Below, in pieces: positions 6,781-59,660 of a stretch of 64,000 nucleotides of DNA. Origin of the DNA: an uncultured Thermoanaerobaculia bacterium. Its GTDB lineage: Bacteria > Acidobacteriota > Thermoanaerobaculia > Thermoanaerobaculales > Sulfomarinibacteraceae. The stretch is from assembly GCA_964609835.1 (NCBI GenBank), contig CAZSTH010000001.1, forward strand, positions 34,087 to 98,086, written 5' to 3'. The notes below the pieces were generated by a model. The model saw nothing but the letters and a program-made list of their open reading frames with translations, made no database searches and was not told the DNA's origin. Position numbers and translations under genes: made by a program. The first letter of the stretch is position 1. Every line of letters begins with the position of its first letter.

Positions 6781-6805
6781 GGACGCTCCGCCGCGGTCCC
6801 TCGTC

Positions 6806-6812
6806 TATTATA
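6806..6812. promoter_or_regulatory. overlapping face-to-face -10 boxes in a 38-bp divergent intergenic region
   Basis: The sequence TATTATA reads TATTAT on the plus strand, 7 nt before ATG 6819. It reads TATAAT on the minus strand, 26 nt before ATG 6780, with GGAG in between. Confidence 0.45.
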
Positions 6813-6818
6813 TCCGCC

Positions 6819-7556: not shown

Positions 7557-7699
7557 TCGGGAACCGACTCTCGAACCAACAAGACACCAACCCACCAGGA
7601 TCCTGACGATGCCGCGCTCGCCGCAGCATCTGTCTTCTTGGGGTCTCCGTGTCCTGGTGGCTCGGTTCACGCGGTGGTCAGAGACTCGAGCACGAGCCT

Positions 7700-26770: not shown

Positions 26771-26986
26771 TTGATGGATGCCACGCTGCTGCTGTCGGCG
26801 TGCGCGGTGGCCATCGTCGCCGTGTTCGTGCTCCTCAGCGGCCTCGCCGCGGTGATGGCGGGGATCACGCGCCTGTTTCCGGAGCGGTTCACTGACCTCG
26901 ACCCCGTGATCGTGGCCGCCATCTCGAACGCGGTCGCGGTGATCTCGCCGGGCGCCAGGGTGACTCGAATCGAGGAGGAACGATGA
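26771..26986 (+). CDS. Na+-translocating decarboxylase gamma subunit (OadG-like)
   Basis: One N-terminal TM segment, then ITRLFPE...DPVIVAAISNAV, resembling OadG (ITRFFPE...KPVIAAAI). Its stop overlaps the next start (ATGA). Confidence 0.6.
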   Translation: MMDATLLLSACAVAIVAVFVLLSGLAAVMAGITRLFPERFTDLDPVIVAAISNAVAVISPGARVTRIEEER

Positions 26987-28833: not shown

Positions 28834-28841
28834 AGGGTGCC

Positions 28842-29999
28842 ATGGAGGCGCTGAGCATCCTCCTCGCGCGCTCCGGGTTCGCCGCCCTCGGCTGGCAGAA
28901 CCTCGTGATGTTCGCCATCGGCGGGCTGCTCATCTACCTGGCGATCCGCAAGGGTTACGAGCCCCTGCTCCTGATCCCGATCGGGTTCGGCGCCATCCTC
29001 GCCAACCTGCCCAACGCGATGATGTCCGCCTCCGCCGACGCTGCTGCGGGCGCGGCACACGGCACCCACCCGTTGCTGCAGCTGGTCTACAACTTCGGCA
29101 TCAAGACCGAGTTCCTGCCGCCGGTGATCTTCCTCGGGGTCGGCGCACTCACCGATTTCCGGCCATTGCTGAGCCGGCCCCTGACCTTTCTCCTCGGTGC
29201 TGCCGCACAGTTCGGAATCGCGGTGGCCGCCCTCGGCGCCTTCCTGCTCTTCGACTTCAACGCCCGCGAAGCGGCGGCCATCGGGATCATCGGCGGGGCC
29301 GACGGACCGACGTCGATCTTCCTGGCGTCGATCATGGCCCCCCACCTGTTGGGCGCGATTGCGGTCGCGGCCTACAGCTATATGTCTCTGGTGCCGATCA
29401 TCCAGCCTCCGATCATGCGGCTCCTGACCACCCGCACCGAACGCGCCATCGACATGCCGCAGGCCCGGCCGGTCTCGCAGACCGCGGTCGTGCTCTTCCC
29501 CATCGTCACCGCCGTGATCGCCTCGCTCGCGGTGCCGGCCTGCGCGCCCCTCATCGGCATGCTGATGTTCGGCAACCTGCTGCGCGAGTCGACGGTCACG
29601 GACCGCCTCTCGAAGACCGCCGGCGGCGCACTCGTCAATATCGTCACGATCTTCCTCGGGGTCGTCGTCGGTGCCACCATGGAGGGCACCACCTTCATCC
29701 GCTGGCAGACGATCTTCATCCTCGTGCTGGGCGCCGTGGCGTTCTCCTTCAGCACCTTCGGCGGGGTCGTTTTCGCCAAGATCCTCAACCTCGTGCTGCC
29801 GGCGGCCCACCGGATCAACCCCTGCATCGGCGCCGCCGGCGTGTCGGCGGTGCCGATGTCGGCGCGGGTGGTCCAGGACTTCGTGGCCCGCGAGACCGAT
29901 GGCCGGGTCAACCCGTTGATGGCCGCCATGGGGCCGAACGTGGCGGGAGTGATCGGCTCCGCAGTGGCGGCCGGAGTGTTCCTCGCCCTGTTGGGCTGA
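28842..29999 (+). CDS. oadB: Na+-translocating decarboxylase beta subunit
   Basis: YLAIRKGYEPLLLIPIGFGAILANLP and the downstream TM pattern are collinear with OadB/GcdB/MmdB. Confidence 0.9.
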   Translation: MEALSILLARSGFAALGWQNLVMFAIGGLLIYLAIRKGYEPLLLIPIGFGAILANLPNAMMSASADAAAGAAHGTHPLLQLVYNFGIKTEFLPPVIFLGVGALTDFRPLLSRPLTFLLGAAAQFGIAVAALGAFLLFDFNAREAAAIGIIGGADGPTSIFLASIMAPHLLGAIAVAAYSYMSLVPIIQPPIMRLLTTRTERAIDMPQARPVSQTAVVLFPIVTAVIASLAVPACAPLIGMLMFGNLLRESTVTDRLSKTAGGALVNIVTIFLGVVVGATMEGTTFIRWQTIFILVLGAVAFSFSTFGGVVFAKILNLVLPAAHRINPCIGAAGVSAVPMSARVVQDFVARETDGRVNPLMAAMGPNVAGVIGSAVAAGVFLALLG

Positions 30000-31939: not shown

Positions 31940-32359
31940 TCAGAACTGTCGGAAGTAGCGTTTCGCCTCGTCGGCCGTTGCCTCCCGCTCCGCCCAGTAA
32001 CTGGGGGCCTCGGCGTCAAACCGGCGCCTCATGGGATCATACCCCACGAGCCGCATGACGAGCCCGATCGGAGTCAGTACGAGGTAGTAGACCGCGGCCA
32101 GCACCACATGCGACACCACGAAGCCGATCGGCCACGCCAGGTACGACATGCCGACGAAGACGGCCCGCATGAACGGCGGTGCGAGCCAGCCCACGACCGG
32201 CACCACGAGCGCCGCGATCCACAGCCCCGCAGCGATCGCCTGGTTGTCGAATTTGAAGCAGGCGACGGCCCCGAACAGGGTCAGGAAACCCAGCCACACG
32301 AAACCGAACTGGTTGAGCTGGCGGCGGCTCGGGTCGGTGTTGATCTGAATCACGCTCAT
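31940..32359 (-). CDS. SxtJ-family membrane protein
   Basis: 139 aa. RQLNQFGFVWLGFL..., 3-4 TM segments, and C-terminal YWAERE...RYFRQF resembling SxtJ. Confidence 0.65.
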   Translation of the reverse strand: MSVIQINTDPSRRQLNQFGFVWLGFLTLFGAVACFKFDNQAIAAGLWIAALVVPVVGWLAPPFMRAVFVGMSYLAWPIGFVVSHVVLAAVYYLVLTPIGLVMRLVGYDPMRRRFDAEAPSYWAEREATADEAKRYFRQF

Positions 32360-32450
32360 GATCTCACCATTCCGACCCCGATCCCTGTCCCGAGCCAGCC
32401 GATGGTGCCCCCCTCAGTCGGGGACGGAAACCTGCAAGTGCTCGGCACGG

Positions 32451-34283
32451 TCAATCCAGCTCGAACTGCGCGAGGTACTTCTCGCGGTCGGGGACGGCTT
32501 CGGTCGGCTGCTCGTCCTTGAGGAGGATGCAGTTCTCGAGCACCAGGACGTCCATGTCGGTGCCCAAAAAACAGTTCAGGGCGTCCTCCGGGGTGCACAC
32601 GATGGGCTCGCCGCGGACGTTGAAGGAGGTGTTGATCATGACCGGGCATCCGGTGCGCTCGGCGTAGCGCGTCATCAGGCGGTGGAGCCGCGGGTGGCGT
32701 TCCGGGTCGACCGTCTGCACCCGCGCCGAGCTGTCGACGTGGGTGATGGCCGGGACCTCGGAGCGGATCAGTTTGAGCTTGTCGAGACCCTGGTGACCGT
32801 CCTGATCGACCTCTCGCCGCCGCGTCTCGGTCACGTTCGCCACCAGCAGCATGTAGGGGCTGTCGGCCTCCTCCTCCATCTCGAACCACTCGCTGACGTG
32901 CTCGCGCAGGACGATCGGCGCGAACGGCCGGAACGACTCACGGAACTTGATCTTGAGGTTCATCACCGACTGCATGTCGCGGCTGCGCGCGTCACCGATG
33001 ATCGACCGGCAGCCGAGGGCCCTCGGACCGAACTCCATCCGCCCCTGAAACAGGCCCACCACCCGTTCGTTCGAGATGTGATCGATGATCTCGCGATCGA
33101 GCTCGACCTCGTCTTCGATCCGCCGGTAGACCGACCCAACGCGGTCGAGGAGGCCGCGGATCGATGCGTCGTCGAAGCGCGGACCGAGCAGCGAACCGCG
33201 CTGGGCGTCCGGTGCCCCGACCGAGCGGCGGTTGCCGAGCAGCTGATGCCAGATGAACAGCGCGGCCCCGAGCGCGCCGCCGGCGTCGCCTGCCGCCGGC
33301 TGGATCCAGATGCGTTCGAACGGCCCCTCACGCAGGATCCTCCCGTTGGCGACGCAGTTCAGTGCCACCCCGCCGGCTAGGCACAGGTTCCGCGTCCCGG
33401 TCTCCACCTGGACGTGGCGGCCCGCCTGCAGCACGATCTCCTCGGTGACCTTCTGAATCGACGCGGCGAGGTCCATCTCGCGTTGGGTCAGCGGCGACTC
33501 CGGCGTGCGCGCCGGGCCCCCGAAGAGCTCCTCGAAGCGCCGAGACGTCATCGTCAGCCCCTGGCAGTAGTTGAAGTAGGAGAGGTCGAGACGGAACGAC
33601 CCGTCCGGCTTGAGGTCCAACAGGTGCTCGAGGATGCGGTCCCGGTAGCGTGCCTCGCCGTACGGCGCCAGGCCCATCAGCTTGTACTCACCCGAGTTGA
33701 CCTTGAAGCCGCAGAAGTAGGTGAACGCCGAGTAGAGCAGCCCCAGCGAGTGCGGAAAACGCAGTTCGTGGCTCAACTCGACGCGGTTGCCGCGGCCGGT
33801 TCCCCAGCTCGCGGTCGCCCACTCCCCCACCCCGTCGAGGGTCAGGACCGCTGACTCCTCGAAGGGCGATGGGAAAAACGCCGATGCGGCGTGCGACTCG
33901 TGGTGCTCGGTGAAGACGATTCGGCGCCTGAAGGCGCCGTCGAGTTCGCGCCGGATCTCCCGCGGCAGATGGAGCTTCTGCCGCAGCCACAACGGCATCG
34001 CCTTCAAAAACGAGCGGAAGCCCACCGGCGCGTAGGCGAGGTAGGTCTCGAGGATGCGCTCGAACTTGAGGAACGGCTTGTCGTAGAAGCCCACGTAGTC
34101 GAGGTCGCCGGGCGCGAGTCCCGCTTCGGACAGGCAGTAGGCGATCGCATGGGACGGAAAGCCGTAATCGTGTTTCACCCGCGTGAAGCGCTCCTCCTGC
34201 GCGGCGGCGACGATTTCCCCGTCCACAACCAGCGCGGCAGCGGAGTCGTGGTAATACGCTGAGATGCCGAGGATCGCGGTCAT
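32451..34283 (-). CDS. carbamoyltransferase (NodU/CmcH family)
   Basis: ILGISAYYHDSAAALVVDGEIVAAAQEERFTRVKHD, GGVALNCVANG, NTSFNVRGEPIV. Confidence 0.9.
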   Translation of the reverse strand: MTAILGISAYYHDSAAALVVDGEIVAAAQEERFTRVKHDYGFPSHAIAYCLSEAGLAPGDLDYVGFYDKPFLKFERILETYLAYAPVGFRSFLKAMPLWLRQKLHLPREIRRELDGAFRRRIVFTEHHESHAASAFFPSPFEESAVLTLDGVGEWATASWGTGRGNRVELSHELRFPHSLGLLYSAFTYFCGFKVNSGEYKLMGLAPYGEARYRDRILEHLLDLKPDGSFRLDLSYFNYCQGLTMTSRRFEELFGGPARTPESPLTQREMDLAASIQKVTEEIVLQAGRHVQVETGTRNLCLAGGVALNCVANGRILREGPFERIWIQPAAGDAGGALGAALFIWHQLLGNRRSVGAPDAQRGSLLGPRFDDASIRGLLDRVGSVYRRIEDEVELDREIIDHISNERVVGLFQGRMEFGPRALGCRSIIGDARSRDMQSVMNLKIKFRESFRPFAPIVLREHVSEWFEMEEEADSPYMLLVANVTETRRREVDQDGHQGLDKLKLIRSEVPAITHVDSSARVQTVDPERHPRLHRLMTRYAERTGCPVMINTSFNVRGEPIVCTPEDALNCFLGTDMDVLVLENCILLKDEQPTEAVPDREKYLAQFELD

Positions 34284-36660: not shown

Positions 36661-37671
36661 ATGAGTGACCGAATGTGGTACGTGGCCGTTGACGGACAGT
36701 CGATCGGACCCATGAGCGAGGCGGAGTTGGTGGACGCCCTGCAAGCGGGCTCCTACGCCCCTGACGTCCAGGTGTACTGCCAGGGCGTGACCGAGTGGGC
36801 AGCGGCCAACACGGTGCCGGCGCTCTCCGAGCACTCCCCACCGCCGCCACCGCCCACCGCCCGCAGAGGCTCGACCGCCGACGAGGTGGACTTCGAGATC
36901 CACGGCGAGGAGATGCAGTTCGTCGAGGTCGAGCTCGATCCGGGCGAGAGCGTGGTCGCCGAGGCCGGCGCCATGATGTACATGGGCGAGGGCATCGAGA
37001 TGGAGACTATCTTCGGCGACGGGGCGAAGCAGAACAGCTCTTTCGTCGACATGCTGGTCGGCGCCGGCAAGCGGGTACTCACCGGCGAGAGCCTGTTCAT
37101 GACGATCTTCGGCCACCGCGGCACCGGCAAGAGCCGGGTCGCCTTCGCCTCGCCGTATCCCGGGAAGATCATCCCAGTCAACCTCGCCCTCCACGGCAAT
37201 CAGATCATCTGCCAGAAGGACGCCTTCCTGTGCGCCGCCAAGGGGGTGTCGGTGAGCATCGCGTTCCAGAAACGGATCGGCACCGCGCTGTTCGGCGGCG
37301 AGGGCTTCATCATGCAGAAGCTCGAGGGCGACGGGCTGGCGTTCGTGCACGCAGGCGGCACCATCATCGAGCGTAAGCTCGGGCCGGGAGAGAGGCTGCG
37401 GGTCGATACCGGGTGCCTGGTGGCGTTGGAGTCGTCGGTCGACTACGACATCGAGTTCGTCCGCAGCGTCAAGTCCGCCATCTTCGGCGGCGAGGGCTTC
37501 TTCTTCGCCCGCCTGCAGGGCGCCGGCAAGGTCTGGCTGCAGTCGCTGCCATTCTCGCGCCTGGCCGGCCGCATCTGGCAGGCGGCACCGCAGACCGGCG
37601 GCCGCACCAAGGGCGAGGGCTCGGTCCTCGGCAAGATGGGCGGTATCGGCGGCTTCTTCGACGGCAGTTAA
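36661..37671 (+). CDS. GYF_2 (DUF4339)-domain / TIGR00266 (AIM24-like) fusion protein
   Basis: The N-terminal [22 protein letters not shown]...[12 protein letters not shown] resembles GYF_2. After a Pro-rich linker, [20 protein letters not shown]...[21 protein letters not shown]...[10 protein letters not shown] resembles AIM24/TIGR00266. Confidence 0.75.
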
Positions 37672-37714
37672 CCCCTTTCCCGATGTCGTGCCGGCCGGCA
37701 CGGCATCGGGAGCC

Positions 37715-40561
37715 TCAGTCCCCAATCACCCGCGCCGCGAATGCGTCGAGGACCCGCAGGTACGGCTCGATGGACGGGATGAAGTGCCGTTCCTCGGCGG
37801 AGTGCGGCCCGATGCCGGTCTGGCCCCACACCACCTGATGGCCGCCGGGCGCGAAGCGCGCCGACGACCCGGGCTTCTTCCGTCCGAGCACCGCAGGCGC
37901 CCCCGAAACCTCTTCCACCGCCGCCGCCAGCGTCTGGAGCAGGGCATTGTCGGCGGGGCAGCTGACGCCAGGCTCCATCAGCGCGACGTCGAGCTCGAGG
38001 CCGAGCTCGGTGCACAGCCGCCCGGTGGCGGCGACCAGGCCGTCGAGGTCGTCGCCCGGGATCGGGCGGATCTCGAGGCCGAGCGTGCCGAGCGACGCGG
38101 TGATGTTGAACACGCCGGCTTCCCCGACGTTGAGGAACGGCAGCCGCGCGGTGGTCTCCCAGCCGTCGGCGCTGGTCAGCGTCAGGTGCCGCCTGAAGAG
38201 CGCCTTGAGAGCCGACTGGATCTCCACCAGCGAGTCGAGGAGGTCGGCCGGACTGCCGCTGGTGCCGGTGTGCCCGGCGATCCCACGCGCGGTCACCGTC
38301 GCGCGCAGGATACCGCGGCTCTCGGGACAAACCTCGCCGAACAGCTCGTCGCCACGCTCGCCCGTCCGCTCGCCCACCACCATCAGCGCCGGCTGCCAGC
38401 CGCTCTCGCGATGCAGGGTCTCGAGAACGTGCGGGGTCCCGAAGGGGTCGCTTTCGCCATTTTCCTCGTTGCCGACCAGGAGCAGATTGAACGGCGGGTA
38501 GGGCGGGCCCTTGGCGGCCTGCTCACCCATCCACACCATGCAGCTTGCTACCACCGTCTTCATGTCGGCGGAACCGCGGCCCCACAGGTATTCACCTTCG
38601 ATCCGCGGCTCGAACTGGCCGTCATCCGGATCCGGGCGCACGACGTCGAAGTGCCCGGAGAGCGTGACCGCAGCCGGCCGGGCGTCGCGAAAACCGGCGA
38701 GCACCGCGGGGTAGCGCCCGCGATCGAAGAGACGAACCTCGAGACCGGCCGAGGCGAGCTGGTTGGCGATGAACCCGGCGCACGAGAAAACCTGTTCGAC
38801 CCGCTCGTCAGGGCAATTGGTGACCGATGGGATGCGCACGAGGCTGGCGGCCAGCCGCAGCACGTCGGCGGTGCGGTCGTCAACGCAGCCCGCCCGAGCC
38901 AGCTCTCGCGTCGGCCCCAGCCGCACCGGCATCGCCGGCCGCTCTTCCGCCAGCCGGCCGAGGCCGGAGACCAGTGGTGCCAGCTTGGACCAGTCGCGCC
39001 CGTACGAGGACGCTTCGGAGGCGATGTCATTGATCTCCTCTGAGAGGCGCCGCCGACGCTGCTCGAACCAGGTCTCGAGTAGCTCCGGAGGGACTACGAG
39101 CGCTCCTGACGGCGCCGTGCGCGGAGCCTTTCCCAACTCGTCGAGCAGCCAGCGCCGCAGCGCGTTTGCCGGGTTCTGGCCGCCGCCGGCCATCTCCCGC
39201 AGCGGCTCCAGCAGGTCGCCCGCGTCGAGCGCCTCCGCCAGCGGCCGGACGTCCTCGAGGAGTTCGGCCAGGAACTCGCGGGTGGCCAGACGGTGGCCGC
39301 GGATGGGATGCTCGATCTTTGCCTCCAACCCGTGGACCGCCGCGGCGACTTCATTGGCCCGCGCACGATCGACGTCGGCCGCGCCGTACGCGTAGCCCTC
39401 CCCGTACGACGGGTCGGCGTAGATTCGCAGCATCAGGAGGTCCTTGAACAGGACCTTTGCGATCGACAGTGGGAGGTCGTCGCCTCCCTCGTCGGTACGG
39501 ACCTCGACCCGGTTCATGGCGAGATCGACCCGGGCGCAGAGGTTCTCCACCACGAGAGCCTGCTCGGCGTCTTCGAGGGTGCCGTGCTCTCCGATCGAGT
39601 AGATGCCGCGCGAGTAAAGCTCGCGCAGTTGTTCGCTGGTGGCCATGATGTTGCGGCGGACCGGGTCGACGTCCGACCGCGCCCGCACCGGGGTCCAGTT
39701 ATTGGCGCCGAACCGGACCCCGGACCGCACCAACCGGTAGGAGATCTCGAGGTAGTCGGCGTGGCTCGCGTAGAGCCCGGGGACGTCGAGCTGCTCGGGG
39801 TTGGGGAACGACAACAGCCGGCAGGAATCGTGATCGGTGAGCACGACCTCGCAGCGCCCCTCGACCTCTTCGGTAGCCAGCGGCGATGCGGCGCTGACCG
39901 CGATGAACGCGGGGCACAGGGGCCGCAGCAGGCGCGTCGCCCGGACAATCGCCCGGTTCCGGTGATCCTCCAGCGTGCGTCCCCTGCGCTCGGACGCGGG
40001 CAGATGGAAAAAGTCCCAGGACAGCATCGCCTCCGGGTAGCTGTGGTTGGTGTGGATGCCGGCGGTGGCGAGGCGTTTTCCGAATAGCTGCACGCAGCGG
40101 CCCAGATAGCGGCGCCGGGCCAGGTTCCACCCGTCAGGAATGCTGTCGGCACCGACCCGGACCCGGTACGGAATGTTGCCGTGGAGCGCGATCAGCGCGA
40201 CTCCGTAGGCGCGGCCGACGCCGGCGAGCACGTCCATCAGGATCCCCTCCAGGACCCGTGACTGCGCGGCGGTCGAGCGTGCGGAGTAGCACGGCGCGGT
40301 GGTCAGCTCGGTCATCCAATTGAAGACCTCGAGCTGGAAGTGATCGCGCGCCCACTCGGGGAGGGCCTCAGCGAAGAGATAGTCTGCGAACGACCTGCGC
40401 TCGGGACCGTAGCCCACGTGCCCCATCGGCGCGAGGTCGCGTCCGAGAACGTTGAACTCCACCTCGAGACCTGACGTGCCGCCGCGCGGATCCCCCTGTT
40501 GCGAGTTCTCCAGCGCCAGCCGGACCTTGTCCGCGAACCGTGACCAGTCGCTCAGGCGCAC
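37715..40561 (-). CDS. fusion protein: glutamate-cysteine-ligase-like carboxylate-amine ligase (N) :: M20-family metallopeptidase/deacylase (C)
   Basis: N-terminal ~560 aa: GLEVEFNVL, AGIHTNHS, NRVEVRTDEGG, matching the GCL/GS-fold ligase pattern. C-terminal ~380 aa: LSGHFDVV, WGRGSADMK, LLLVGNEENGE, matching M20 ArgE/DapE/CPG2 motifs. Confidence 0.8.
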   Translation of the reverse strand: MRLSDWSRFADKVRLALENSQQGDPRGGTSGLEVEFNVLGRDLAPMGHVGYGPERRSFADYLFAEALPEWARDHFQLEVFNWMTELTTAPCYSARSTAAQSRVLEGILMDVLAGVGRAYGVALIALHGNIPYRVRVGADSIPDGWNLARRRYLGRCVQLFGKRLATAGIHTNHSYPEAMLSWDFFHLPASERRGRTLEDHRNRAIVRATRLLRPLCPAFIAVSAASPLATEEVEGRCEVVLTDHDSCRLLSFPNPEQLDVPGLYASHADYLEISYRLVRSGVRFGANNWTPVRARSDVDPVRRNIMATSEQLRELYSRGIYSIGEHGTLEDAEQALVVENLCARVDLAMNRVEVRTDEGGDDLPLSIAKVLFKDLLMLRIYADPSYGEGYAYGAADVDRARANEVAAAVHGLEAKIEHPIRGHRLATREFLAELLEDVRPLAEALDAGDLLEPLREMAGGGQNPANALRRWLLDELGKAPRTAPSGALVVPPELLETWFEQRRRRLSEEINDIASEASSYGRDWSKLAPLVSGLGRLAEERPAMPVRLGPTRELARAGCVDDRTADVLRLAASLVRIPSVTNCPDERVEQVFSCAGFIANQLASAGLEVRLFDRGRYPAVLAGFRDARPAAVTLSGHFDVVRPDPDDGQFEPRIEGEYLWGRGSADMKTVVASCMVWMGEQAAKGPPYPPFNLLLVGNEENGESDPFGTPHVLETLHRESGWQPALMVVGERTGERGDELFGEVCPESRGILRATVTARGIAGHTGTSGSPADLLDSLVEIQSALKALFRRHLTLTSADGWETTARLPFLNVGEAGVFNITASLGTLGLEIRPIPGDDLDGLVAATGRLCTELGLELDVALMEPGVSCPADNALLQTLAAAVEEVSGAPAVLGRKKPGSSARFAPGGHQVVWGQTGIGPHSAEERHFIPSIEPYLRVLDAFAARVIGD

Positions 40562-40586
40562 GCCGCCACCTCCCGGCCCGAACCGA

Positions 40587-41876
40587 TCACAGCGATGACA
40601 GCGCCCCCCACAGCCGGTCGAGGGCGGCGCTCGTGGTCTCGGGCGCCAGAGCGTACGAGAAGCGGATCCAGCGGGCTCCGAACTCGGAGAAGTACGCCCC
40701 GGGGACGACCGCGATCCCGTGCCGCTCTGCCAGCAGCGAGCCGAGCGACGCGGTGTCCTCGAGTTCGGCCCGCTCGAGCCACGGACTCATGTCGAGGAAG
40801 GCGTAGTAGCCCTTGCCGAGGATGTGCCCGATGCCGTGCCCATCCAGGAACGCCGCCACCAGCTCGCGGCTGGCGTTGGTCGGCGCCACGATCTCTGCCG
40901 CTACCGTGTCGAATCCCTCGCGATAAGCCGAGATCGCAACCGCCTGGCTGTGGAAAGAGGGAATCACCGCGTGGGACGCACGGCTCTGGATGAACTTGAT
41001 GATCTTCTCCGACGCCAGCAGGTGCGCGTTGCGGATGTTCGAGGCCCCGAGCGACTTGGTGATGCCGTCGAGGAAAATGCAGCGCTCGCGCTCCTCCGGG
41101 TCGAGGGAGCGCAGGAAGGAGTTGAGGTCGTGCGGCTCCTCGTCCGTCACCCGGTGGTAGATCCAGTCGAAGAGGACATAGGGAATGCCCGCTGCAAACG
41201 CGGCACGGGCGATGGCGATCTGCTGCTCGGGCTCGAGGCTGCGGCCGGTCGGGTTGTCTGGGCTGGTCACCACCAGCAGTGCAAGGCGGCGGCCCTCCAG
41301 ACCGGCTGCGAAGTCGGCGCAAGCGGCGACGCCGTCCGCCGTCAGGACCCACGCGTCCGACTCCTCGCCGGGAGCGAGCATGACGTTGGCGCCGACCGCG
41401 TAGGGACCCCAGTTGTACGAGATCCACGGCACCCGGGAGGCGACCACGAAGTCGCCCCACCGCCCGTGGCCGAGAAACTGGACGGCGTCGTAGGCTTTGA
41501 CGAGGGCATCACGGCCTCCCTGGCACGCGATGACGTTGCCGGGGCCCCACCCCGTGGCGGAGTCGAGGCCCCAGTAGTCCTCCACCACCGCCCGTCGGAA
41601 CTCGGGCGTCCCGAACGGCTTGTCATAGCCGGTGCCGTGCTCGATCTGGAGCTGGTGGGCCATCCCGAGGAGTCTGGCCGGAACCCCGGGCAGGCTCTGG
41701 CCGCCATCGCCCTGGCTTGCGTCGAAGACGGTCCCCTGCGGGTCGCGATCGAGGTAGACCTTCAGGGCCTCGTTGATCTCGAACATTCGACTCCCGGGAA
41801 TCGCGAGCATCCGCGACGGGCTCGAGTCGACCGCGATCAGCTGTTCCGGCCCCACCACCAGCTTCGGATCTCCCAT
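40587..41876 (-). CDS. class I/II PLP-dependent aminotransferase
   Basis: TSPDNPTG, FDWIYH, GITKSLGASNIR (PLP Lys), IRFSYA. Start trimmed to ATG 41876 with a GGAAGGAAG SD. Lies 25 nt upstream of the fusion gene. Confidence 0.85.
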   Translation of the reverse strand: MGDPKLVVGPEQLIAVDSSPSRMLAIPGSRMFEINEALKVYLDRDPQGTVFDASQGDGGQSLPGVPARLLGMAHQLQIEHGTGYDKPFGTPEFRRAVVEDYWGLDSATGWGPGNVIACQGGRDALVKAYDAVQFLGHGRWGDFVVASRVPWISYNWGPYAVGANVMLAPGEESDAWVLTADGVAACADFAAGLEGRRLALLVVTSPDNPTGRSLEPEQQIAIARAAFAAGIPYVLFDWIYHRVTDEEPHDLNSFLRSLDPEERERCIFLDGITKSLGASNIRNAHLLASEKIIKFIQSRASHAVIPSFHSQAVAISAYREGFDTVAAEIVAPTNASRELVAAFLDGHGIGHILGKGYYAFLDMSPWLERAELEDTASLGSLLAERHGIAVVPGAYFSEFGARWIRFSYALAPETTSAALDRLWGALSSL

Positions 41877-41958
41877 GGCCACTTCCTTCCGGCCGGCGCG
41901 TCCCGGCGCGGCGCCATTGTGCCAAAATTCGGCGGCGCCCCCGGTGATCCCGCCGGTT

Positions 41959-44073
41959 TCAGCCCACCAGCCAGGTGTCATCGACCGGATGATAGCTCGC
42001 CAGGCCCTCGCGGAGGCGTTCAAGCTCGTTGCCGGTCATCCGCGCGCAGCGTTCGCGCGTCGCCGCGATCATCGCCGCATCGCGGGCGAGGTCGGCAAAA
42101 CGAAAAGCTGCCGGACCCCACTGCCGGGTTCCCGTCAGCTCGCCCGGCCCGCGGAGACGGAGGTCAGCCTCCGCGATTTCGAAGCCGTCGCCGGTTTGGC
42201 ACACCGCCTCGAGGCGCTGGCGCGCGGCCTCGCCCGGCTCGTCATCGACCAGCAGGATGCACCAGGAGGCCCGCTCGCCGCGGCCGACCCGTCCGCGCAG
42301 CTGGTGGAGCTGGGACAGCCCGAAATGCTGCGCCGATTCGATCACCATCACAGTTGCCTCCGGCACGTCCACGCCGACCTCGACGACCGTGGTCGCGAGC
42401 AGGAGCCGATCGTCCCCCGAGCGGAACCGCGCCGTCACCAGCTCCCGTTCCTCGCGGCTCAGCCTGCCGTGGAGGATGCCGACACCGAACTCCGAAAACG
42501 CCTCCCGAACCTCGGCCTCGCGGTCCTCGATCGACGCCAGCTCGAGGTCCTCGTTGGCGTCGATGTGCGGACACACTATGAAGCCCCGCCCGCCCTCCTC
42601 GAGCTCACTGCGCAGGAAACGGTAGATGCGCGATCGGGCACCCACGGTCCTCAGCTCGGTCCGCACCGGCCGCCGGCCCGGTGGCATCTCGTCGACCAGC
42701 GACAGATCGAGATCGCCGTACACGGTCATCGTCAGGGAGCGCGGAATCGGCGTCGCCGTCATCACTAGCAGGTGCGGCGAATGCCCCTTGCGAAGCAGGG
42801 CAGTGCGTTGGGTGACGCCGAATCGGTGCTGCTCGTCGACCACCACCATCCCAAGCCTTCGGTAGATCACCGCCTCTTGAAACAGCGCGTGGGTGCCGAC
42901 AACCAACCGGATGGACCCATCCGCCACTCCACCGACCACCTGCCGGCGCTCCCGTGCGCTCAGGGAGCCGACCAGGAGCGCCGGCGGATACCCCGCCGTG
43001 TCGAGCACTTCCAGCGACCTCAGGTGCTGCTCGGCCAGGAGCTCGGTCGGCGCCATCATCGCCACCTGGAACCCGGCTTCGAGCACCAGAGACATAGCGA
43101 GAGCCGCAACCACGGTCTTGCCCGAGCCGACATCGCCCTGAACCAGGCGGGCCATGGGGCGCGGCCGCCCGAGGTCGGCTGCAATCTCGGCCACCACCCT
43201 CTCCTGAGCCGCTGTCAACCGGAACGGCAGCAGCGAGCGCACACCCCTGTCGGCCCCCCGCGCCGGCACCACCTGCGGCGCCTTCATGTCCCGACGCCGC
43301 CGCCGCGTACGCTCCACCGCGCACGCGTAGGCCATCAGCTCGTCGAATGCGAGCCGCGTGTGGGCTCCTGAACGACCTTCCTCGAGCGCATGCAGCGCCA
43401 CCTCCCGCGCCGCCGGGTCGGCGGGAAGCTGCGGTCGATGGAGCGCGACCAGGCTGTCCGCTATGCTCGGCAGTCCGGTGTCGCGCCGGATCGCGGCCGG
43501 CAGCGGGTCTAGGCAGCCGCTCGCCGCGACCAGGCATTGTTCAATCCACCGCCGCACGGCCCGTGATCCGAAGCGGCCGAGGCGGGGGTAGACCGGCACG
43601 ACACCTTCGGCGCCGTCCTCGCCGGGCTCGATCTCGGGGTTGACGAGCTCGAGGCCACCGCCGCGCCGGCGGCGGAGCCGTCCCCAGAGATAGAGCACGG
43701 GCTCGTTCTCGAGCCGGGCGCGGACCCACGGCTGATTGAACCACACAGCGGATAGGTGTGCGTGGCCGTCTTTGACCACTCCGTCCACGATGGTGAGCCG
43801 GCGCTTCGGGATGCGGCGCTCCCGGATCGCCGTGACGCGGCCGCGTACCAGCACCGGGCCACCCTCGCCCTGCAGCGAGTCGAGGCGCGCGACGCGGGAC
43901 CGGTCCTCCCACCGCCGGGGCAGAACGAACAGCAGATCCCGGACGGTCTTCAGGCGCTCGGCAGCGAGAGCCTCCGCCGATCGCGGGCCGATGCCCTTGA
44001 GCGCTGTCAGCGGGTCGTCGGGACCAAGCGGGCGGCCGCCGTCACTCAATCGCCGTTGGTCTCGAAGCGGCAC
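41959..44073 (-). CDS. recG: ATP-dependent DNA helicase RecG
   Basis: Wedge domain followed by GDVGSGKT, DEQHRFG, MTATPIPR and QLHQLRGRVGRG. An alternative TTG start at 44049 overlaps the upstream stop. Confidence 0.95.
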   Translation of the reverse strand: MPLRDQRRLSDGGRPLGPDDPLTALKGIGPRSAEALAAERLKTVRDLLFVLPRRWEDRSRVARLDSLQGEGGPVLVRGRVTAIRERRIPKRRLTIVDGVVKDGHAHLSAVWFNQPWVRARLENEPVLYLWGRLRRRRGGGLELVNPEIEPGEDGAEGVVPVYPRLGRFGSRAVRRWIEQCLVAASGCLDPLPAAIRRDTGLPSIADSLVALHRPQLPADPAAREVALHALEEGRSGAHTRLAFDELMAYACAVERTRRRRRDMKAPQVVPARGADRGVRSLLPFRLTAAQERVVAEIAADLGRPRPMARLVQGDVGSGKTVVAALAMSLVLEAGFQVAMMAPTELLAEQHLRSLEVLDTAGYPPALLVGSLSARERRQVVGGVADGSIRLVVGTHALFQEAVIYRRLGMVVVDEQHRFGVTQRTALLRKGHSPHLLVMTATPIPRSLTMTVYGDLDLSLVDEMPPGRRPVRTELRTVGARSRIYRFLRSELEEGGRGFIVCPHIDANEDLELASIEDREAEVREAFSEFGVGILHGRLSREERELVTARFRSGDDRLLLATTVVEVGVDVPEATVMVIESAQHFGLSQLHQLRGRVGRGERASWCILLVDDEPGEAARQRLEAVCQTGDGFEIAEADLRLRGPGELTGTRQWGPAAFRFADLARDAAMIAATRERCARMTGNELERLREGLASYHPVDDTWLVG

Positions 44074-44843
44074 TGGATCGTGCCGAAGACGACGGCGTCC
44101 CCGGGCGTTAGCGGCGCGGCGCGGCCCGCTACCAGCCGGACGCCGTTGACGAACGTCCCGTTCATGGTTCCCACGTCCTCGACGAGGCTGAAGGAACCGT
44201 CATCCTCGCGGCGAACGCGGGCATGCCGGCGCGAGATCGATCGCTTGCCATCCACCGGGGTCAGGTCCACGTCCGGCATGATCCCGGTGACCGGGTCGAT
44301 CCGGCCGATCGTTGTCTCCTTCGATTCCGACAGCGGGAAGGAGATCCCGCTCGAGACCTCCACCAACCGGGCATGCGGGTCGAGAGGGGCGGCCGGCGCC
44401 GGCTCCTTGATTCCCGACTCCTCGATGTCGACCTCGTGGCCCACCGCGTCCTCGAGCAGCTCGGTCGTCTGCTGCAGTCTCCGCACCAACTTGCGCATCA
44501 TGCGGATCGCGATCTCCGGGTTGTGCTTGAGAATGAACGTGAATGCGGACTGGTCGATCATCACCAGCTGGACGTCCTCCACGGCGTGCGCGGAAGCCGA
44601 TCGCGGGCGCTCGTCCTCGAGCATGCACATCTCGCCGAAGAAGTCGCCCTTGCCGAGGGTCGCGAGCACCTGCTCCCGGCCGCCGAGCCGTTTCCTGATC
44701 TCGACCTGACCGCCCTCGATCACGTACATCGCGAGGCCGAGGTCGCCCTCGGCAAAGATCACGCTGCCCTTCGGAAACTCGGTTCGCATCGGTTCCAGAG
44801 AGTCGTGGGTATCGCTCGTGGACTTGACCTTGAACTTCGCCAT
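44046..44843 (-). CDS. cyclic-nucleotide-binding domain / FHA domain protein
   Basis: The cNMP cassette GDFFGEMCML...RPRSASAHA carries the FGE..RSA phosphate-binding motif. The C-terminal FHA domain shows TTIGR...ISRRHARV...GTMNGTFVNG. Confidence 0.85.
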   Translation of the reverse strand: MAKFKVKSTSDTHDSLEPMRTEFPKGSVIFAEGDLGLAMYVIEGGQVEIRKRLGGREQVLATLGKGDFFGEMCMLEDERPRSASAHAVEDVQLVMIDQSAFTFILKHNPEIAIRMMRKLVRRLQQTTELLEDAVGHEVDIEESGIKEPAPAAPLDPHARLVEVSSGISFPLSESKETTIGRIDPVTGIMPDVDLTPVDGKRSISRRHARVRREDDGSFSLVEDVGTMNGTFVNGVRLVAGRAAPLTPGDAVVFGTIQCRFETNGD

Positions 44844-44844
44844 C

Positions 44845-45771
44845 TCAGCTCCACACCACGCAACCGAGCCGCGTGTCGACGGAGACCTCGGCGCCGATCG
44901 GCAGTGCCAGGTTCACGGCGCCGTGGCCGAACGGCAGGTCAACCACCACCGGCGCGCCCTCGGGAGCCGATTCTTCGAGCATGCAACACCACCTTCGCGA
45001 CCGTTCCGGAGCCGGGCGGCAATCACGCAAGCTCCCGCCAATCAATGCTTTCACCTTCCGCAATCTACCAGAGGACCGAAGGTGGGTCAACATCCGGTCG
45101 AGCCTGTAGAGGGGCTCGCCAACGTCCTCGAGAAACACCACCGAGCCCGCGAAGTCGGGCTCCCAGTCGGTGCCGATCAGGGACACCAGCACGCTGAGAT
45201 TCCCGCCGACGGAGGCCCCGACGGCAGCTCCGTGGCGCACCACCTGTCGCTCGCCGAATCTGAACAGACACTCGCCGCGGAGGCTCCCCTCCATCAGGTG
45301 GCGCAGCCGTGCGGCGTTGCGCGGGCGGTGCAGGCCTGCCGCGACCATCGGACCGTGGACCTGAACCGTTCCGCCCCGGCGCGCCAGCGGGTTGAGCAAC
45401 GCCGTCACATCGGAGAAGCCGACCAGCGCTACGTCGAGTTCGTGCAGCAGGTCCCAGCCCAGCCGGTCGAGAAGCCGGGTAGCACCGTAGCCGCCCCTGG
45501 CCGCCACGATCCAGCGCGCCCCGTGCTCCACGACCTCGGCCAGCCCGGCCAAACGCTCCTCGTCGTCACCGGCGAGGTAGCCCGCCCTCCGTCCCACGTT
45601 CTCCGCCACCACCACCGGGTGGCCCCAACCACGCACGACACCGAGGCCGGCCTCGAGGCGCTCTCGATCGACCGGCCCCGACAGCGCCGCCACGCCGATC
45701 GGCTCGCCGCGCTCGAGTCGCTTGAACGTCGCGTTCACGCTCTCAGCATGCCACGGATCGCGAGGTCGCAC
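44845..45771 (-). CDS. ldcA: LD-carboxypeptidase (S66 family, LdcA-like)
   Basis: IGVAALSGPV, AGYLAGDDEERLAGL, AARGGYGATRLL, DLPFGHG. The start may lie a few codons downstream. Confidence 0.8.
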   Translation of the reverse strand: MRPRDPWHAESVNATFKRLERGEPIGVAALSGPVDRERLEAGLGVVRGWGHPVVVAENVGRRAGYLAGDDEERLAGLAEVVEHGARWIVAARGGYGATRLLDRLGWDLLHELDVALVGFSDVTALLNPLARRGGTVQVHGPMVAAGLHRPRNAARLRHLMEGSLRGECLFRFGERQVVRHGAAVGASVGGNLSVLVSLIGTDWEPDFAGSVVFLEDVGEPLYRLDRMLTHLRSSGRLRKVKALIGGSLRDCRPAPERSRRWCCMLEESAPEGAPVVVDLPFGHGAVNLALPIGAEVSVDTRLGCVVWS

Positions 45772-50514: not shown

Positions 50515-53500
50515 ATGGGACCCCCCGAAGGTACCGAACCCACTTTCGAAGATCTCCGGGAACGGCCGCCGGCCGAAGCTGCCGGCGTCATCGCGCGCCA
50601 GCTGGTGGACGAAGACGCCCCACAGCGCCGGGACAGCCGACTGGTCGACCTCCTGGACGACCGCCGAGCCGGCGACCAGATCCTGGAGCACCTGCCGTTG
50701 GAGGCGCTGGAAACCCTGGCTCGGCGGTGTGCGGGGCGGTTGGATCCGTCGAGTCCGGAGCCGTCGAGCAACGCCGTCGCATGGCAGCTGCTGGACGTCC
50801 TCCGAAGGCGGGAGGTGCTGGTCCGGATCGCCGCGGACGGGACCGTCGACAGCTGGGCGGAGCTGCTGCTCGAGCTGGTGGAACGGTCGCACTTCACCTT
50901 CGCGCGCCTCTTCCAGCAGCGTGCCGCGGGCTACGGCGAGCGGCCCCTCTTCGAGCTTCCCGCCAACGGCGGCAGCCGCAAGGTCAGCTGGCGGCAAGCC
51001 TCGGGACGGGTCGACCTGATCGCCCGATCTCTGCTCGCGCTCACCGCAGCCACCGGACAGCAGCCGGTGGGCATCCTGTCCCGGAACCGGCTCGACATGG
51101 CGCTCGTCGATCTCGCCTGCCTGACCAGCGGCATCGTCAATGTCGTGGTACCGGCCAATGCGACCGAGACCGACGTCGCATTCATCCTCGAACACGCCGA
51201 TGTCGGTGCCGTCGTGGTCTCCGACCGCGAGCAGGTCCAGAAGATCCTCAACGTTCGTGATCGGCTGCCACGGCTGGGACCGTTGGTGGCCCTCGACCCC
51301 GCGGCGGCCGGGCGTCACGGCGCGATCGCCTTCGAGCAGCTGATGGCAAGATCGTCGGAGGTGGCACCGGAGCAGCTCGAGGAGCGCCGGAGCGCGCAGC
51401 GCGTCGACGACCTGGCGACCGTCATGTACACCTCGGGAACCACCGGCACCCCAAAGGGCATCTGCTTCACCCAGCGCAACATCGTGTCCAAGCGCTTCGC
51501 GCGGGCGCTCGCGCTGCCGGAGATCGGCGAGGGCGACCGCTTCCTCTGTTATCTACCGCTCTTCCACACCTTCGGCCGATTCCTCGAGATGACCGGCTGC
51601 GTGTTCTGGGGCGCCACCTACTGCTTCGCAGACGATCCGAGTGTCGAGACCCTGACGCGGCAGATGCGTGGCCTGGGCACCACGGTCTTCATCAGCGTGC
51701 CGATGAAGTGGATGCAGCTCTACGATCTCGTGCGGCAGAGCGTGGATGTGGTGGCGGCAACCGACGACGAGATCCGGACCGCCCTGCGCGAGGTGACCGG
51801 ACCCGCACTGCGTTGGGGCCTGTCCGCCGCCGGCTACCTCGACCCTGAGGTCTTCCACTTCTTCCAGCGCAACGGTGTCGAGCTGATGAGCGGCTTCGGC
51901 ATGACCGAAGCCACCGGCGGCATCACCATGACCCCGCCCGGGCACTACAAGGACGACTCGCTCGGGCCCGCGCTTCCCGGCGTCGAAACCGACCTCGCGG
52001 CCGACGGGGAGATGGTGATCCGCGGCCCGTATGTGATGCGCGGCTACCTCGACCCTCCGGACGGAGTGCCGTCCTTCGACGACCGCGGCTGGTTCCATAC
52101 CGGCGACCTCATGGAGCGCGACGAGGACGGCTACTACCGGATCGTCGACCGCAAAAAGGAGATCTACAAGAACATCCACGGCGAGACCATCGCCCCGCAG
52201 AAGATCGAGAACCTCTTCCGGGACTTCGACTCGGTGGGCAGGGTCTTCCTCGTCGGCGACCACCGTCCCTACAACACGGCCCTCGTCTATCCCAACCCTG
52301 AGTTCGAGGAGATCGACCTGGCGTCGCTTTCGCCCAATGATCTGAAGGACCACTTCAGGTCGTTGGTGGTGAGCGCCAACTCCTTCCTGGCGCCGTACGA
52401 GCGGATCATCGACTTCGCCATCATCGACCGCGACTTCGACGCCGACCGCGGCGAACTCACGCCCAAGGGCACCTACCGGCGCAAGAACATCGAGCGCGCC
52501 TTTTCCGACCGCATCAGCCTCCTCTACCGGCGCCGCACGCTGACGGTCGGCGGCGCGAACGTGGTGGTGCCCAACTGGTTCTTCCAGGCGCTGGGCATGA
52601 CGGCCCAGGATCTCATCGTCGACGGTGACGAGCTTCGGCTGCGGTCCGAGGGCACCACGCTGGCCATCCGCGCCGAGGGCGAGGGCGCGGTCAGGGTCGG
52701 CTCGGTGGTCTACACCCTGCAGCAGAAGGCCGTCGACCTCGGTCATCTCCTCTCGATTCCCCGCCTGTGGCTCGGCAACGAGGCGCTGGTTGGCTTCGCA
52801 CCGCTCGCCCCCGAGCAGCGCAACCGCCGCCGGCGGCGGCGGGTGTCCGCAGAATGGCTGCGGCGCACCAGTCCCTATCGCGCGAGAACCGCCGACGGTG
52901 ACGCCATCTCCGCGCTGATGAGGCGCCAGGAGGCGGAGCTCCGCGACGTCCACCAGGCCGCGCTCCTGCTGGCGAGCGACGACGAGGGGGTGGCGGTGCA
53001 GGCGGTCAGGATCCTTGACCACCTCCTTCACATCGACGACAGCGGGCTCAACGATTTCACGCTCAGGATCCTGCGGCGAGCGGCGGACTCACCGCTTGGC
53101 CGCGTCCGCCAGCGTGCCTTCCAGGTCCTGGCGTCGGTGGAGCTCGACTCCCGGTACCGGAACACACTGGCTCGCTTCTTCGACAACGGCCACAACGTCC
53201 TCGATGCCGAGACCATCTCGGTGCTCGTCGACCGCGACCTCACCTCCCACCAGATCGAATGCTTCATCGCCGAGGCCGAGTCGCGGTGGATCCGCGGCGC
53301 CGGCGGCGGCGCCGACTACGACGTCGTCCGCGCCATGTGTGCCTTTCTCGCCCGTTACGGTGCGGCACATCCGAGCCAGTATCGCCGCCTCCGAGGCTTC
53401 TTCACGCGATCGATGATGATCGCCTCCGACCAAACCGCTCGGGACATGGCGGCGGCCGGCAAGCGCGAGCTCGCCGACGGCTTCCGGCTGTGGCTCGGCG

Positions 53501-59377: not shown

Positions 59378-59418
59378 CTCCTCGCCTCCTCCGCGCCCGA
59401 TCCCTCGAGCTCCCGCCG

Positions 59419-59447
59419 AATGTATCTTCATGTGACGAATTATTCAA
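59419..59447 (-). promoter_or_regulatory. putative sigma-70-type promoter TTGAAT-17-TACATT for the 23-haem gene
   Basis: On the minus strand the -35 is at 59447..59442 and the -10 at 59424..59419, in the most AT-rich stretch of the divergent intergenic region. Confidence 0.35.
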
Positions 59448-59660
59448 GTTTGTCGTTTGCGGCGAATTGAGATAAAGACTCTTTTCAATAACCGGTTCCT
59501 GAGCCTCCGGGACGCTTTCGCGATCAGGGACCGTGTCGGGCGGCGTTCGATCGCCGATCCTGGACCCTCGCCACCGGTTCCACAGGGCGGTCTGGTCCAC
59601 GCGGCACCGGTGATGGTATTCTCCGGTCACGGTCGAGCAAATGTGCAAGGGAGAGCCGTC

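Follow-up and report, generated by a model that had tools for sequence, protein, structure and literature searches.

A Two-Gene Module Joining an Aminotransferase to a Ligase–Deacylase Fusion Probably Encodes an Undescribed Piece of Primary Amino-Acid Metabolism in Uncultured Bacteria

Introduction

Why would a bacterium join an amide-forming and an amide-cleaving enzyme in one polypeptide chain, and keep an aminotransferase gene directly upstream? This question is raised by a two-gene module of an uncultured Thermoanaerobaculia bacterium (Acidobacteriota; Sulfomarinibacteraceae), located within a stretch of 64,000 nucleotides (nt) that was analyzed as a whole and is referred to as the window (assembly GCA_964609835.1, contig CAZSTH010000001.1, positions 34,087 to 98,086; G+C content approximately 68%). 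A preliminary description, made from the sequence alone, had proposed an aminotransferase followed after 25 nt by a 948-amino-acid (aa) fusion of a glutamate–cysteine ligase (GCL)-like enzyme and an M20 peptidase. Our analysis indicates a real, widespread and, judging by its conserved residues, catalytically intact module with three activities, in which known folds are combined in a new architecture. The module probably encodes an undescribed three-step piece of primary amino-acid metabolism. In our preferred reading, to which we assign a probability of roughly 35%, an amino-oxo-dicarboxylic acid would be acylated, transaminated and deacylated again.

Results

Structure of the Module

The module and the signals next to its genes comprise the following features:

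40587..41876 (−): aminotransferase gene, 429 aa, first gene of the module; first ATG at 41876, stop codon ending at 40587
37715..40561 (−): fusion gene, 948 aa, with a GTG start; from the open reading frame (ORF) list and its translation
38942..40561 (−): ligase domain of the fusion, aa 1–540, ending in a C-terminal helical hairpin (aa 492–540)
38879..38941 (−): inter-domain linker, aa 541–561, predicted as coil in the full-length AlphaFold2 (AF2) model
37715..38878 (−): M20 metallo-deacylase domain, aa 562–948, plus the stop codon; from Pfam, NCBIfam, PDB and Foldseek
40562..40586 (−): intergenic spacer of 25 nt, holding GGGAGG (40569–40574) 7 nt before the fusion GTG
41882..41890 (−): Shine–Dalgarno-like sequence GGAAGGAAG, preceding the aminotransferase ATG; read from the sequence
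37679..37710 (no strand assigned): GC-rich hairpin directly past the fusion stop codon, terminator-like, without a U tract

The ORF list and the translations bear out the two-gene unit, the gap and the length of the fusion, and all motifs quoted for the latter (GLEVEFNVL, AGIHTNHS, NRVEVRTDEGG, HFDVV, GRGSADMK, and GNEENGE) are present in its translation. The position of its GTG start matches the N-termini of homologues. Regarding the start of the aminotransferase gene, both the Shine–Dalgarno-like sequence and the letters CACAAT, formerly proposed as a promoter box, are in place, but a promoter role of the latter is unsupported and carries no weight here: a sigma-70 consensus scan of positions 37400–42300 revealed no promoter-like site. 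The hairpin behind the fusion gene is predicted to fold with −28.8 kcal/mol (z = −3.2), a stability reached by none of 200 shuffled sequences; a consensus terminator scan gave no call at this site. The hairpin separates the fusion gene from a convergent gene encoding a GYF_2 and AIM24 fusion protein (336 aa, 36661–37671, +), whose position is kept in relatives.

A Ligase Domain with GCL Fold

To place the N-terminal half of the fusion, profile matches and structure predictions were combined. The AF2 model of the ligase domain (predicted local distance difference test [pLDDT] 90.6, predicted template modeling score [pTM] 0.92; 36-sequence alignment) confirmed, at the level of the predicted fold, a member of the GCL/glutamine synthetase (GS)-fold superfamily of ATP-dependent carboxylate–amine ligases. 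Nearest to the model in Foldseek were GshA (3nzt, 8e-11), the YbdK-like structures 1tt4 and 1r8g, GshAB 3ln7, and E. coli GCL (1v4g/2d32), followed at greater distance by PafA/Dop, yeast GCL, and glutamine synthetases. The anticipated fold was thereby recovered, but the hidden Markov models reached none of the family thresholds: GCS2 (Pfam PF04107) scored 18.7 bits against a cutoff of 21, which some homologues of the fusion do pass, gshA_cyano as the best NCBIfam ligase match scored 43.7 bits against 249 (1.7e-11), and NCBIfam YbdK scored 24.5 bits against 425 (1.3e-5). When the ligase family profile was compared to the PDB, YbdK was the best match (5.9e-11), and GshAB (4.7e-6) and GshA were also found. 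The family itself is very small, with 131 representatives (E ≤ 1e-3) among 1.84 billion proteins.

Compared to GshA (E. coli 1v4g/2d32 and Francisella 3nzt), the ligase domain has the same fold (Foldseek 8e-11 to 1e-9, TM-score 0.55–0.63), its GxHxNxS motif aligns, and the other Glu and Arg ligands are kept by motif comparison; however, it is only 13–16% identical, falls below the curated GshA thresholds, and adds the C-terminal helical hairpin, a variable acceptor-side insert, and the fused M20 domain. YbdK/GCS2 (1r8g, 1tt4) gave the best profile-to-PDB match with a TM-score of 0.73–0.74 (normalised to the target), and IMG assigns some members of the fusion family to the same COG, but the domain studied here is about 180 aa longer and forms a separate family. 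GshF/GshAB (3ln6, 3ln7), a structural neighbor, likewise carries a GCL-fold domain at the N-terminus of a two-enzyme fusion. In that case the product is extended by an ATP-grasp partner ligase, whereas here an amide-cleaving M20 enzyme is the partner, which places the fusion outside the GshF/GshAB family.

Among 16 ligase-domain sequences with identities down to about 20%, G31, E33, E35, E85, P90, Y152, G168, H170, P227, R248, R293, E353, R355, and N403 are invariant, and the same columns hold in larger alignments of up to 43 sequences. The motifs GLExE, ExxTxP, GxHxNxS, SxR, PxR, and ExR presumably correspond to E27, E29, E67, H150, R235, R304, E328, and R330 of E. coli GshA. The motif around H170 (GIHTNHS) was aligned to the H150 motif by hhalign of the family profile against the E. 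coli GshA sequence, the only region to align, with a probability of 42%; the remaining equivalences come from motif comparison and the numbering of GshA. By this comparison the Mg/ATP-binding Glu residues, whose possible loss had been considered in the preliminary description, are invariant together with the equated His and Arg residues, and the acidic and basic metal/ATP-binding residues of the GCL superfamily appear to be retained.

An M20 Domain of the DapE/ArgE Branch

The C-terminal domain (aa 562–948) matches Peptidase_M20 (PF01546) with 66.9 bits against a cutoff of 24.6 (3e-18), while the match to M20_dimer is weak (17.3 versus 21). In the full-length AF2 model (pLDDT 85.7), it is connected to the ligase domain by a coil of about 20 residues (pLDDT ~53–70); no solved structure found by Foldseek or in the PDB spans both domains. 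Its nearest solved relatives by sequence are 2rb7 and DapEs, and Foldseek ranked DapE 8f8o (1.3e-20, TM-score 0.78) and 2rb7 (TM-score 0.85) first, followed by ArgE and CPG2, whereas carnosinase, PepT, and PepV-like dipeptidases ranked lower. The model superposes on DapE and 2rb7 (TM-score 0.77–0.85) and has the small dimerisation (lid) domain, and the metal and catalytic residues align with the metal-ligand motifs of both. H637, D666, E699, E700, E731, H920, and the lid residue His764 do not vary among the 43 fusions compared, which come from two phyla. Domain architecture, di-metal ligands, and general-base Glu place the domain in the M20 family (PF01546).

Its best matches by sequence and structure thus lie in the DapE/ArgE/LysK/CPG2 branch, of which it keeps the di-metal ligands, the general base, and the lid histidine. 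It differs from this branch by its fusion to a ligase and by its scores: the best NCBIfam matches are the DapE and ArgE/DapE models, but all remain far under the equivalog cutoffs (PRK13009, 87.6 versus 284; TIGR01246, 61.1 versus 361.8). Because the DapE equivalog scores are not reached, the label "succinyl-diaminopimelate desuccinylase" found in databases is not justified for the fusion.

A Class I Aminotransferase

The upstream gene encodes a class I, aspartate aminotransferase (AspAT) Ib-like enzyme dependent on pyridoxal 5'-phosphate (PLP), in agreement with the class I/II assignment made earlier. It matches Aminotran_1_2 (PF00155) with 76.6 bits against 19.7 (2.7e-21), and class Ib AspATs are nearest to it in the PDB (1j32, 2.9e-16); the family profile also matches the N-succinyl-diaminopimelate aminotransferase 2o0r (DapC Rv0858c, 4.8e-11). 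None of the NCBIfam aminotransferase equivalogs (AspAT, DapC, DapL, GntC, and others) was reached, the best being GntC (81.5 versus 415), and DapC_actino scored 36.1 versus 355. Across four lineages, the Schiff-base Lys274, Asn208, Asp237, Tyr240, and the carboxylate-binding Arg405 are invariant, and so are the family-specific residues D52, G56, D57, and R122. Taken over the three activities, the invariant residues support catalytic competence of the whole module, as far as conservation can indicate it.

The Fusion Is Genuine and Widespread

More than 120 full-length clusters (~950 aa) share 60–75% identity with the window protein. They stem mostly from metagenome-assembled genomes (MAGs) of Thermoanaerobaculales and other Acidobacteria and are annotated just as M20 hydrolase or "DapE". 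For a member of the Chloroflexi/Aminicenantes branch (48% identical), at least 1,590 clusters of ~940–960 aa were found at E ≤ 1e-50. In total, 485 GTDB species encode a relative (one genome per species). From these, the best 80 loci were collected with a narrower family alignment as query; they span Thermoanaerobaculia, Sulfomarinibacteraceae, Aminicenantes, and Anaerolineales including Ca. Villigracilis.

Where both domains lie on the contig (73 loci), the fusion is one uninterrupted ORF in all cases except one, i.e., in 72/73. The fusion is therefore genuine, and an assembly artefact, the concern voiced in the preliminary description, does not apply. In the exceptional locus (L059, 10001–12825), four stops or frame changes keep ligase and M20 out of one frame, a probable sign of an assembly error or a pseudogene. 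Four further loci (L012, L017, L039, and L077) hold 65–71% identical, fully syntenic copies labelled Chondromyces, Methylomirabilota, Deltaproteobacteria or Eubacteriales; for these, mis-binned or mislabelled MAG contigs seem more likely than horizontal transfer.

The Aminotransferase Is Linked to the Fusion Across Phyla

Linkage was counted over the 68 loci with enough upstream sequence, covering Acidobacteriota and Chloroflexota. The aminotransferase gene lies upstream on the same strand in 68/68, and within 300 nt of the fusion gene in 56 of them. Within Thermoanaerobaculia the whole region is syntenic (S66, RecG, aminotransferase, fusion, AIM24, phosphoglucomutase, and carbamoyltransferase), and adjacency there is by itself weak evidence of linkage. 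Comparison of loci from Acidobacteriota and Chloroflexota by BLAST is decisive: aminotransferase and fusion alone are shared, all other matches being shadow ORFs over these two genes. No third conserved gene was found between the phyla, and in the Chloroflexi-type loci no other neighbor occurs in more than 4/15. Aminotransferase and fusion move as a unit between genomes, because only these two genes are common to both phyla; the adjacency noted at the outset is thus preserved far beyond the window. With hundreds of full-length homologues and a linkage that spans phyla, the arrangement goes far past what chance would produce.

In two relatives with 60–62% identity (L001, 4631–9789, and L002, 8631–9875), one to four genes are inserted between aminotransferase and fusion, namely an opposite-strand GSDH gene and genes for a Cu-amine-oxidase-like protein, a multihaem protein, and a protein of unknown kind. 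These insertions show a recombination-prone spot inside the module.

Deep Relatives Contain the Three Activities as Separate Genes

Stand-alone ligase proteins of ~550–590 aa with 20–24% identity form a clade of 66 clusters, some labelled Peregrinibacteria. In three unrelated contexts, their genes are arranged on the same strand in the order aminotransferase, ligase, M20, and they abut or overlap by 4–41 nt. These split trios are found at the following loci:

L085: split trio on a 930-kb contig
L086/L087: split trio of Peregrinibacteria (GCA_016188705.1)
L089/L090: split trio

Pfam confirms the identity of the genes flanking the stand-alone ligases. The split-form M20 is 33% identical to the window M20 over the catalytic core, and the boundary between split ligase and M20 genes coincides with the linker of the fusion. 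Stand-alone M20 proteins are 543–710 aa long (L086, 9709–11841; L085, 9680–11311; L089, 11264–12925) with large insertions in the fold, the Pfam match spanning 430–530 residues against a model of 206 positions. A second, independent fusion (L092, 997 aa, 27% identity) also carries an M20 domain; it has an aminotransferase gene 8 nt upstream and lies within a pyrimidine cluster (pyrF, pyrE, pyrK, pyrD, pyrC, pyrB, and carA).

Divergence of the aminotransferases in these lineages is similar to that of the ligases (20–25% versus 20–27% identity), as is predicted if the trio was inherited together, and the trio is ancient. The occurrence of fused and split forms ("Rosetta stone") is a textbook indication, at the sequence level, that ligase and hydrolase work together. 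Overlap of the split genes suggests stoichiometric co-production, and translational coupling of the neighbors argues against an artefact and for a functional link.

The surroundings of the split trios differ. In Peregrinibacteria, the neighbors are an asparaginase and a homoserine dehydrogenase (aspartate family); in L085, a PTR2/MFS peptide transporter is encoded two genes upstream; and in L089, an 881-aa M14 carboxypeptidase with MAM-like and FlgD-Ig domains (5218–7863) lies directly upstream. The window also encodes an M14 carboxypeptidase of similar size (885 aa, 21536–24193, −), located 14 kb from the module; this likeness may be accidental or may hint weakly at peptide metabolism.

Discussion

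Known Systems with Related Components

No description of the fusion or of the trio was found in curated families, PDB structures or papers, in agreement with the earlier statement that no characterised example is known, and the module belongs to no curated family at the equivalog level. The "alternative DapE" of GapMind (2026) is an unrelated case from Bacteroidota. Several known systems nevertheless share parts of its organization.

One parallel is found in the pathways DapD/DapC/DapE and LysX/LysJ/LysK, which both combine N-acylation, an aminotransferase, and an M20 deacylase. LysX is ATP-dependent, and the gamma-glutamyl-N-alpha bond that it forms is later cut by the M20 enzyme LysK. However, the acylating enzyme of the module has a GCL fold, while DapD is a hexapeptide-repeat acyl-CoA transferase and LysX belongs to the ATP-grasp enzymes. 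Furthermore, neither the window nor the annotated neighborhoods contain genes for a LysW carrier, an ATP-grasp LysX, a kinase or a reductase, which sets the module apart from the LysW pathway. HisB, a fusion of imidazoleglycerol-phosphate dehydratase and histidinol-phosphatase, joins two steps that flank the separate aminotransferase HisC; folds and chemistry are unrelated, and HisB serves as an architectural precedent only. In ergothioneine synthesis (EgtA/EgtC/EgtE), a GCS2 ligase adds a gamma-glutamyl group, an amidohydrolase removes the glutamate, and a PLP enzyme of aminotransferase fold acts on the intermediate; but EgtC is of the class-II glutamine-amidotransferase type rather than M20, and no counterpart of EgtB or EgtD lies near the module.

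Protection, Transamination and Deprotection as the Preferred Reading

The module may be viewed as a self-contained three-enzyme unit of a class I PLP aminotransferase, a GCL-fold ligase, and a di-metal deacylase of the DapE/ArgE type; its probable role is that of a new pathway variant. As a family, ligases of GCL fold use glutamate, activated at its gamma-carboxylate, to acylate amino acids on the alpha-amino group. Class I aminotransferases that have the conserved Arg work on an alpha-keto/alpha-amino centre, and M20 enzymes of the DapE/ArgE/LysK type hydrolyse N-alpha-acyl amino acids, LysK cleaving a gamma-glutamyl-N-alpha bond. By analogy, the ligase would use ATP to activate a carboxylate as acyl phosphate, most likely the gamma-carboxylate of free glutamate, and link it to an amino acid through the alpha-amino group; the aminotransferase would act at an alpha-amino/alpha-keto acid centre; and the deacylase would hydrolyse an N-alpha-acyl amino acid. 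The carboxylate and amine substrates, the step order, and the product given below are those that we infer.

Three observations shape this reading. No gene beyond the trio is conserved, and therefore the substrates should be common metabolites. Presence in a genome of the Candidate Phyla Radiation (CPR) and in a pyrimidine cluster argues for primary rather than specialised metabolism. And if the ligase is fused to a hydrolase of the same bond, the intermediate would have to be altered in between, or the two domains would act on different bonds. We therefore favor, at the probability of roughly 35% given above, a cycle on an amino-oxo-dicarboxylate. In a first step, the ligase would N-acylate (gamma-glutamylate) an amino-oxo-dicarboxylic acid that is otherwise prone to cyclise; in a second step, the aminotransferase would convert its alpha-keto end into an alpha-amino acid with glutamate as donor; and in a third step, the fused M20 domain would remove the acyl group and return glutamate beside the ligase for re-use. 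In sum, ATP would drive the synthesis of a diamino acid, with neither CoA nor a carrier protein required. In all three known N-protected pathways (DapD/C/E, ArgA–E, and LysX/Z/Y/J/K), to our knowledge, an M20 enzyme deprotects after the aminotransferase has acted.

The best-fitting candidate substrate would be tetrahydrodipicolinate (2-amino-6-oxopimelate), converted to LL-diaminopimelate (DAP), because it combines a free alpha-amino end with an alpha-keto end and the risk of cyclisation. Glutamate and ATP would then replace succinyl- or acetyl-CoA (DapD) or LysW in N-protection, and the module would serve the same function as DapD/DapC/DapE or LysX/LysJ/LysK. The aspartate-family neighbors in Peregrinibacteria, the DapE-like M20 domain, and the match of the aminotransferase profile to DapC Rv0858c hint weakly at this specific version, which we regard as quite unlikely; it would be an unrecognised variant of DAP/lysine synthesis, run by uncultured Acidobacteriota, Anaerolineales, Peregrinibacteria, and other lineages.

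Several points weigh against the preferred reading. The chemistry is drawn entirely by analogy. Fused domains usually catalyze consecutive steps, and here the separate aminotransferase would fall in the middle; among the genes, aminotransferase comes first, followed by ligase and M20. The acceptor-side loop of the ligase (aa 294–335) is of low confidence in the model and rich in indels between clades, and the acceptors may differ between clades. In 12 of the 68 loci, 0.6–5.3 kb lie between aminotransferase and fusion, with opposite-strand genes in the two such loci that have annotated genes; strict co-transcription is therefore not obligatory. Some contexts are of a peptide type, namely the M14 carboxypeptidase in L089, the PTR2 transporter in L085, and the S66 carboxypeptidase in the window. 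With respect to DAP, neither dapA, dapB, dapF nor lysA lies beside the module in the window or in eight annotated related loci, no DapD or other dap gene was present in any module neighborhood examined, and Chloroflexi are reported to use DapL. Annotating the remainder of the window revealed no dap, lys, arg or gsh genes.

Alternative Explanations

The next candidate, which we consider doubtful though possible, follows the route suggested in the preliminary description: the aminotransferase would produce an unusual amino acid, the ligase would couple glutamate to it, yielding a gamma-glutamyl product (a thiol, an osmolyte or another compound), and the M20 domain would trim, deacylate or turn over this product. 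In this case the order of steps equals the order of genes in every lineage. The ligase fold is that of gamma-glutamylcysteine ligases, the top NCBIfam ligase match is gshA_cyano, the GIHTNHS motif aligns to the H150 motif of E. coli GshA, and EgtA/EgtC/EgtE provide a precedent for enzymes arranged around a gamma-glutamyl handle. However, a synthetase and a hydrolase of the same N-acyl bond would run a futile cycle unless the bonds differ, the true GshA and GCS2 families score far under threshold, the module has no further conserved partner gene for biosynthesis, export or regulation, and small CPR genomes as well as the pyrimidine cluster look like core metabolism. The architecture originally described (a GCL/GS-fold ligase and an ArgE/DapE-type M20 domain with a class I aminotransferase upstream) stands. 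For the chemistry proposed with it, a sequence of making an amine, ligating it, and trimming it to a thiol, osmolyte or siderophore precursor, we found no specific support. The lack of any other conserved partner, the occurrence in CPR, and the DapE/ArgE-like M20 domain oppose it, and these three points favor protection, transamination and deprotection in primary metabolism at least as much.

Unlikely, in our view, is a role in salvage. Here, the M20 domain would free an amine from an N-acyl amino acid or dipeptide of necromass and pass it to the fused ligase, which would couple it again to glutamate or another carboxylate, while the aminotransferase would connect the 2-oxo-acid pool with the amino acid that is released or formed. 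The two fused domains would then be consecutive, which is the common pattern in fusions and in glutaminase-synthetase amidotransferases. Peptide-related contexts also fit, i.e., the 881-aa M14 carboxypeptidase upstream of one split trio, the PTR2/MFS transporter, the asparaginase, and, in the window, the co-directional S66 LD-carboxypeptidase three genes upstream and the 885-aa M14 enzyme 14 kb off; fermentation of proteinaceous matter is a known trait of the host lineages. Yet these neighbors are lineage-specific and not conserved, the M20 domain is nearer to the deacylases DapE, ArgE, and CPG2 than to the dipeptidases PepV, PepT, and carnosinase, re-ligation of a salvaged amino acid would cost ATP with no obvious benefit, and the tightly coupled aminotransferase would have no specific role.

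Finally, the comparative data largely refute the idea that no pathway is shared, the aminotransferase being an ordinary, merely syntenic AspAT, or one fusion domain being dead and kept for oligomerisation or regulation: the overall synteny in Thermoanaerobaculia, where adjacency proves little, and the genes inserted in ~60% identical relatives would be in line with it, but adjacency is kept in Acidobacteriota, Chloroflexota, Peregrinibacteria, and two further lineages with nothing else in common, the aminotransferases kept pace with the ligases in their divergence and have invariant residues specific to the family, the split-form genes overlap, and the catalytic residues of both fused domains are all invariant, which makes it highly improbable.

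Two other ideas were set aside. M20 enzymes are not known to hydrolyse the amides of an ATP-driven transamination cycle of the glutamine-transaminase/omega-amidase kind, and a PafA/Dop-like protein modification is disfavored by a ligase far closer to GshA and YbdK than to PafA and by the lack of a linked Pup-like gene.

Other Features of the Window

Upstream of the module, three co-directional genes were identified:

41959..44073 (−): RecG
44046–44843 (−): cyclic nucleotide monophosphate (cNMP)-binding/FHA protein
44845–45771 (−): S66 LD-carboxypeptidase, three genes upstream of the module

The genes for S66, the cNMP-binding/FHA protein, and RecG abut or overlap, and their order is kept only in Thermoanaerobaculia. 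On the other side of the module lies a gene for a 610-aa carbamoyltransferase (NodU/CmcH type), with an SxtJ-like protein encoded next (31940–34283, −); in relatives, including L001 and L003, a small DUF5989 protein follows the SxtJ-like protein, and this trio is syntenic beside phosphoglucomutase in Thermoanaerobaculia.

Regarding the more distant parts of the window, a 1,584-aa ORF (50515–55269, +) carries an AMP-binding (acyl-adenylate-forming) domain at its N-terminus and a GNAT acetyltransferase domain at its C-terminus, separated by ~800 residues that have no Pfam match. One 1,068-aa protein (56225–59431, −) unites a multihaem cytochrome c (c7/c3-type, paired CXXCH) and a cytochrome b561-like membrane domain, and the gene for a 553-aa NapC/NirT-type multihaem protein (59457–61118, +) is divergent from it; the pair may form an extracellular electron-transfer module. 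Genes for an oxaloacetate decarboxylase alpha subunit (carboxyltransferase and biotinyl domain) and a Na+-pumping beta subunit (26771–29999, +) are preceded by a 71-aa ORF, a candidate gamma subunit. A 1,308-aa sigma-54 activator (10017–13943, −) has ~1,000 N-terminal residues that lack a Pfam match.

Implications

In public annotation, the fusion appears as "M20 metallo-hydrolase" or, wrongly, as "succinyl-diaminopimelate desuccinylase". Its spread over at least 485 species-level genomes and more than 1,500 clusters from Acidobacteriota, Chloroflexota, and CPR fits a compact piece of primary metabolism, and its hosts are abundant uncultured bacteria of sediment and wastewater. If the preferred reading is true, the module would represent an answer based on ATP and glutamate to a problem that is otherwise solved by acyl-CoA transferases or by the LysW carrier, and it would fill pathway gaps in metabolic reconstructions of these host groups.

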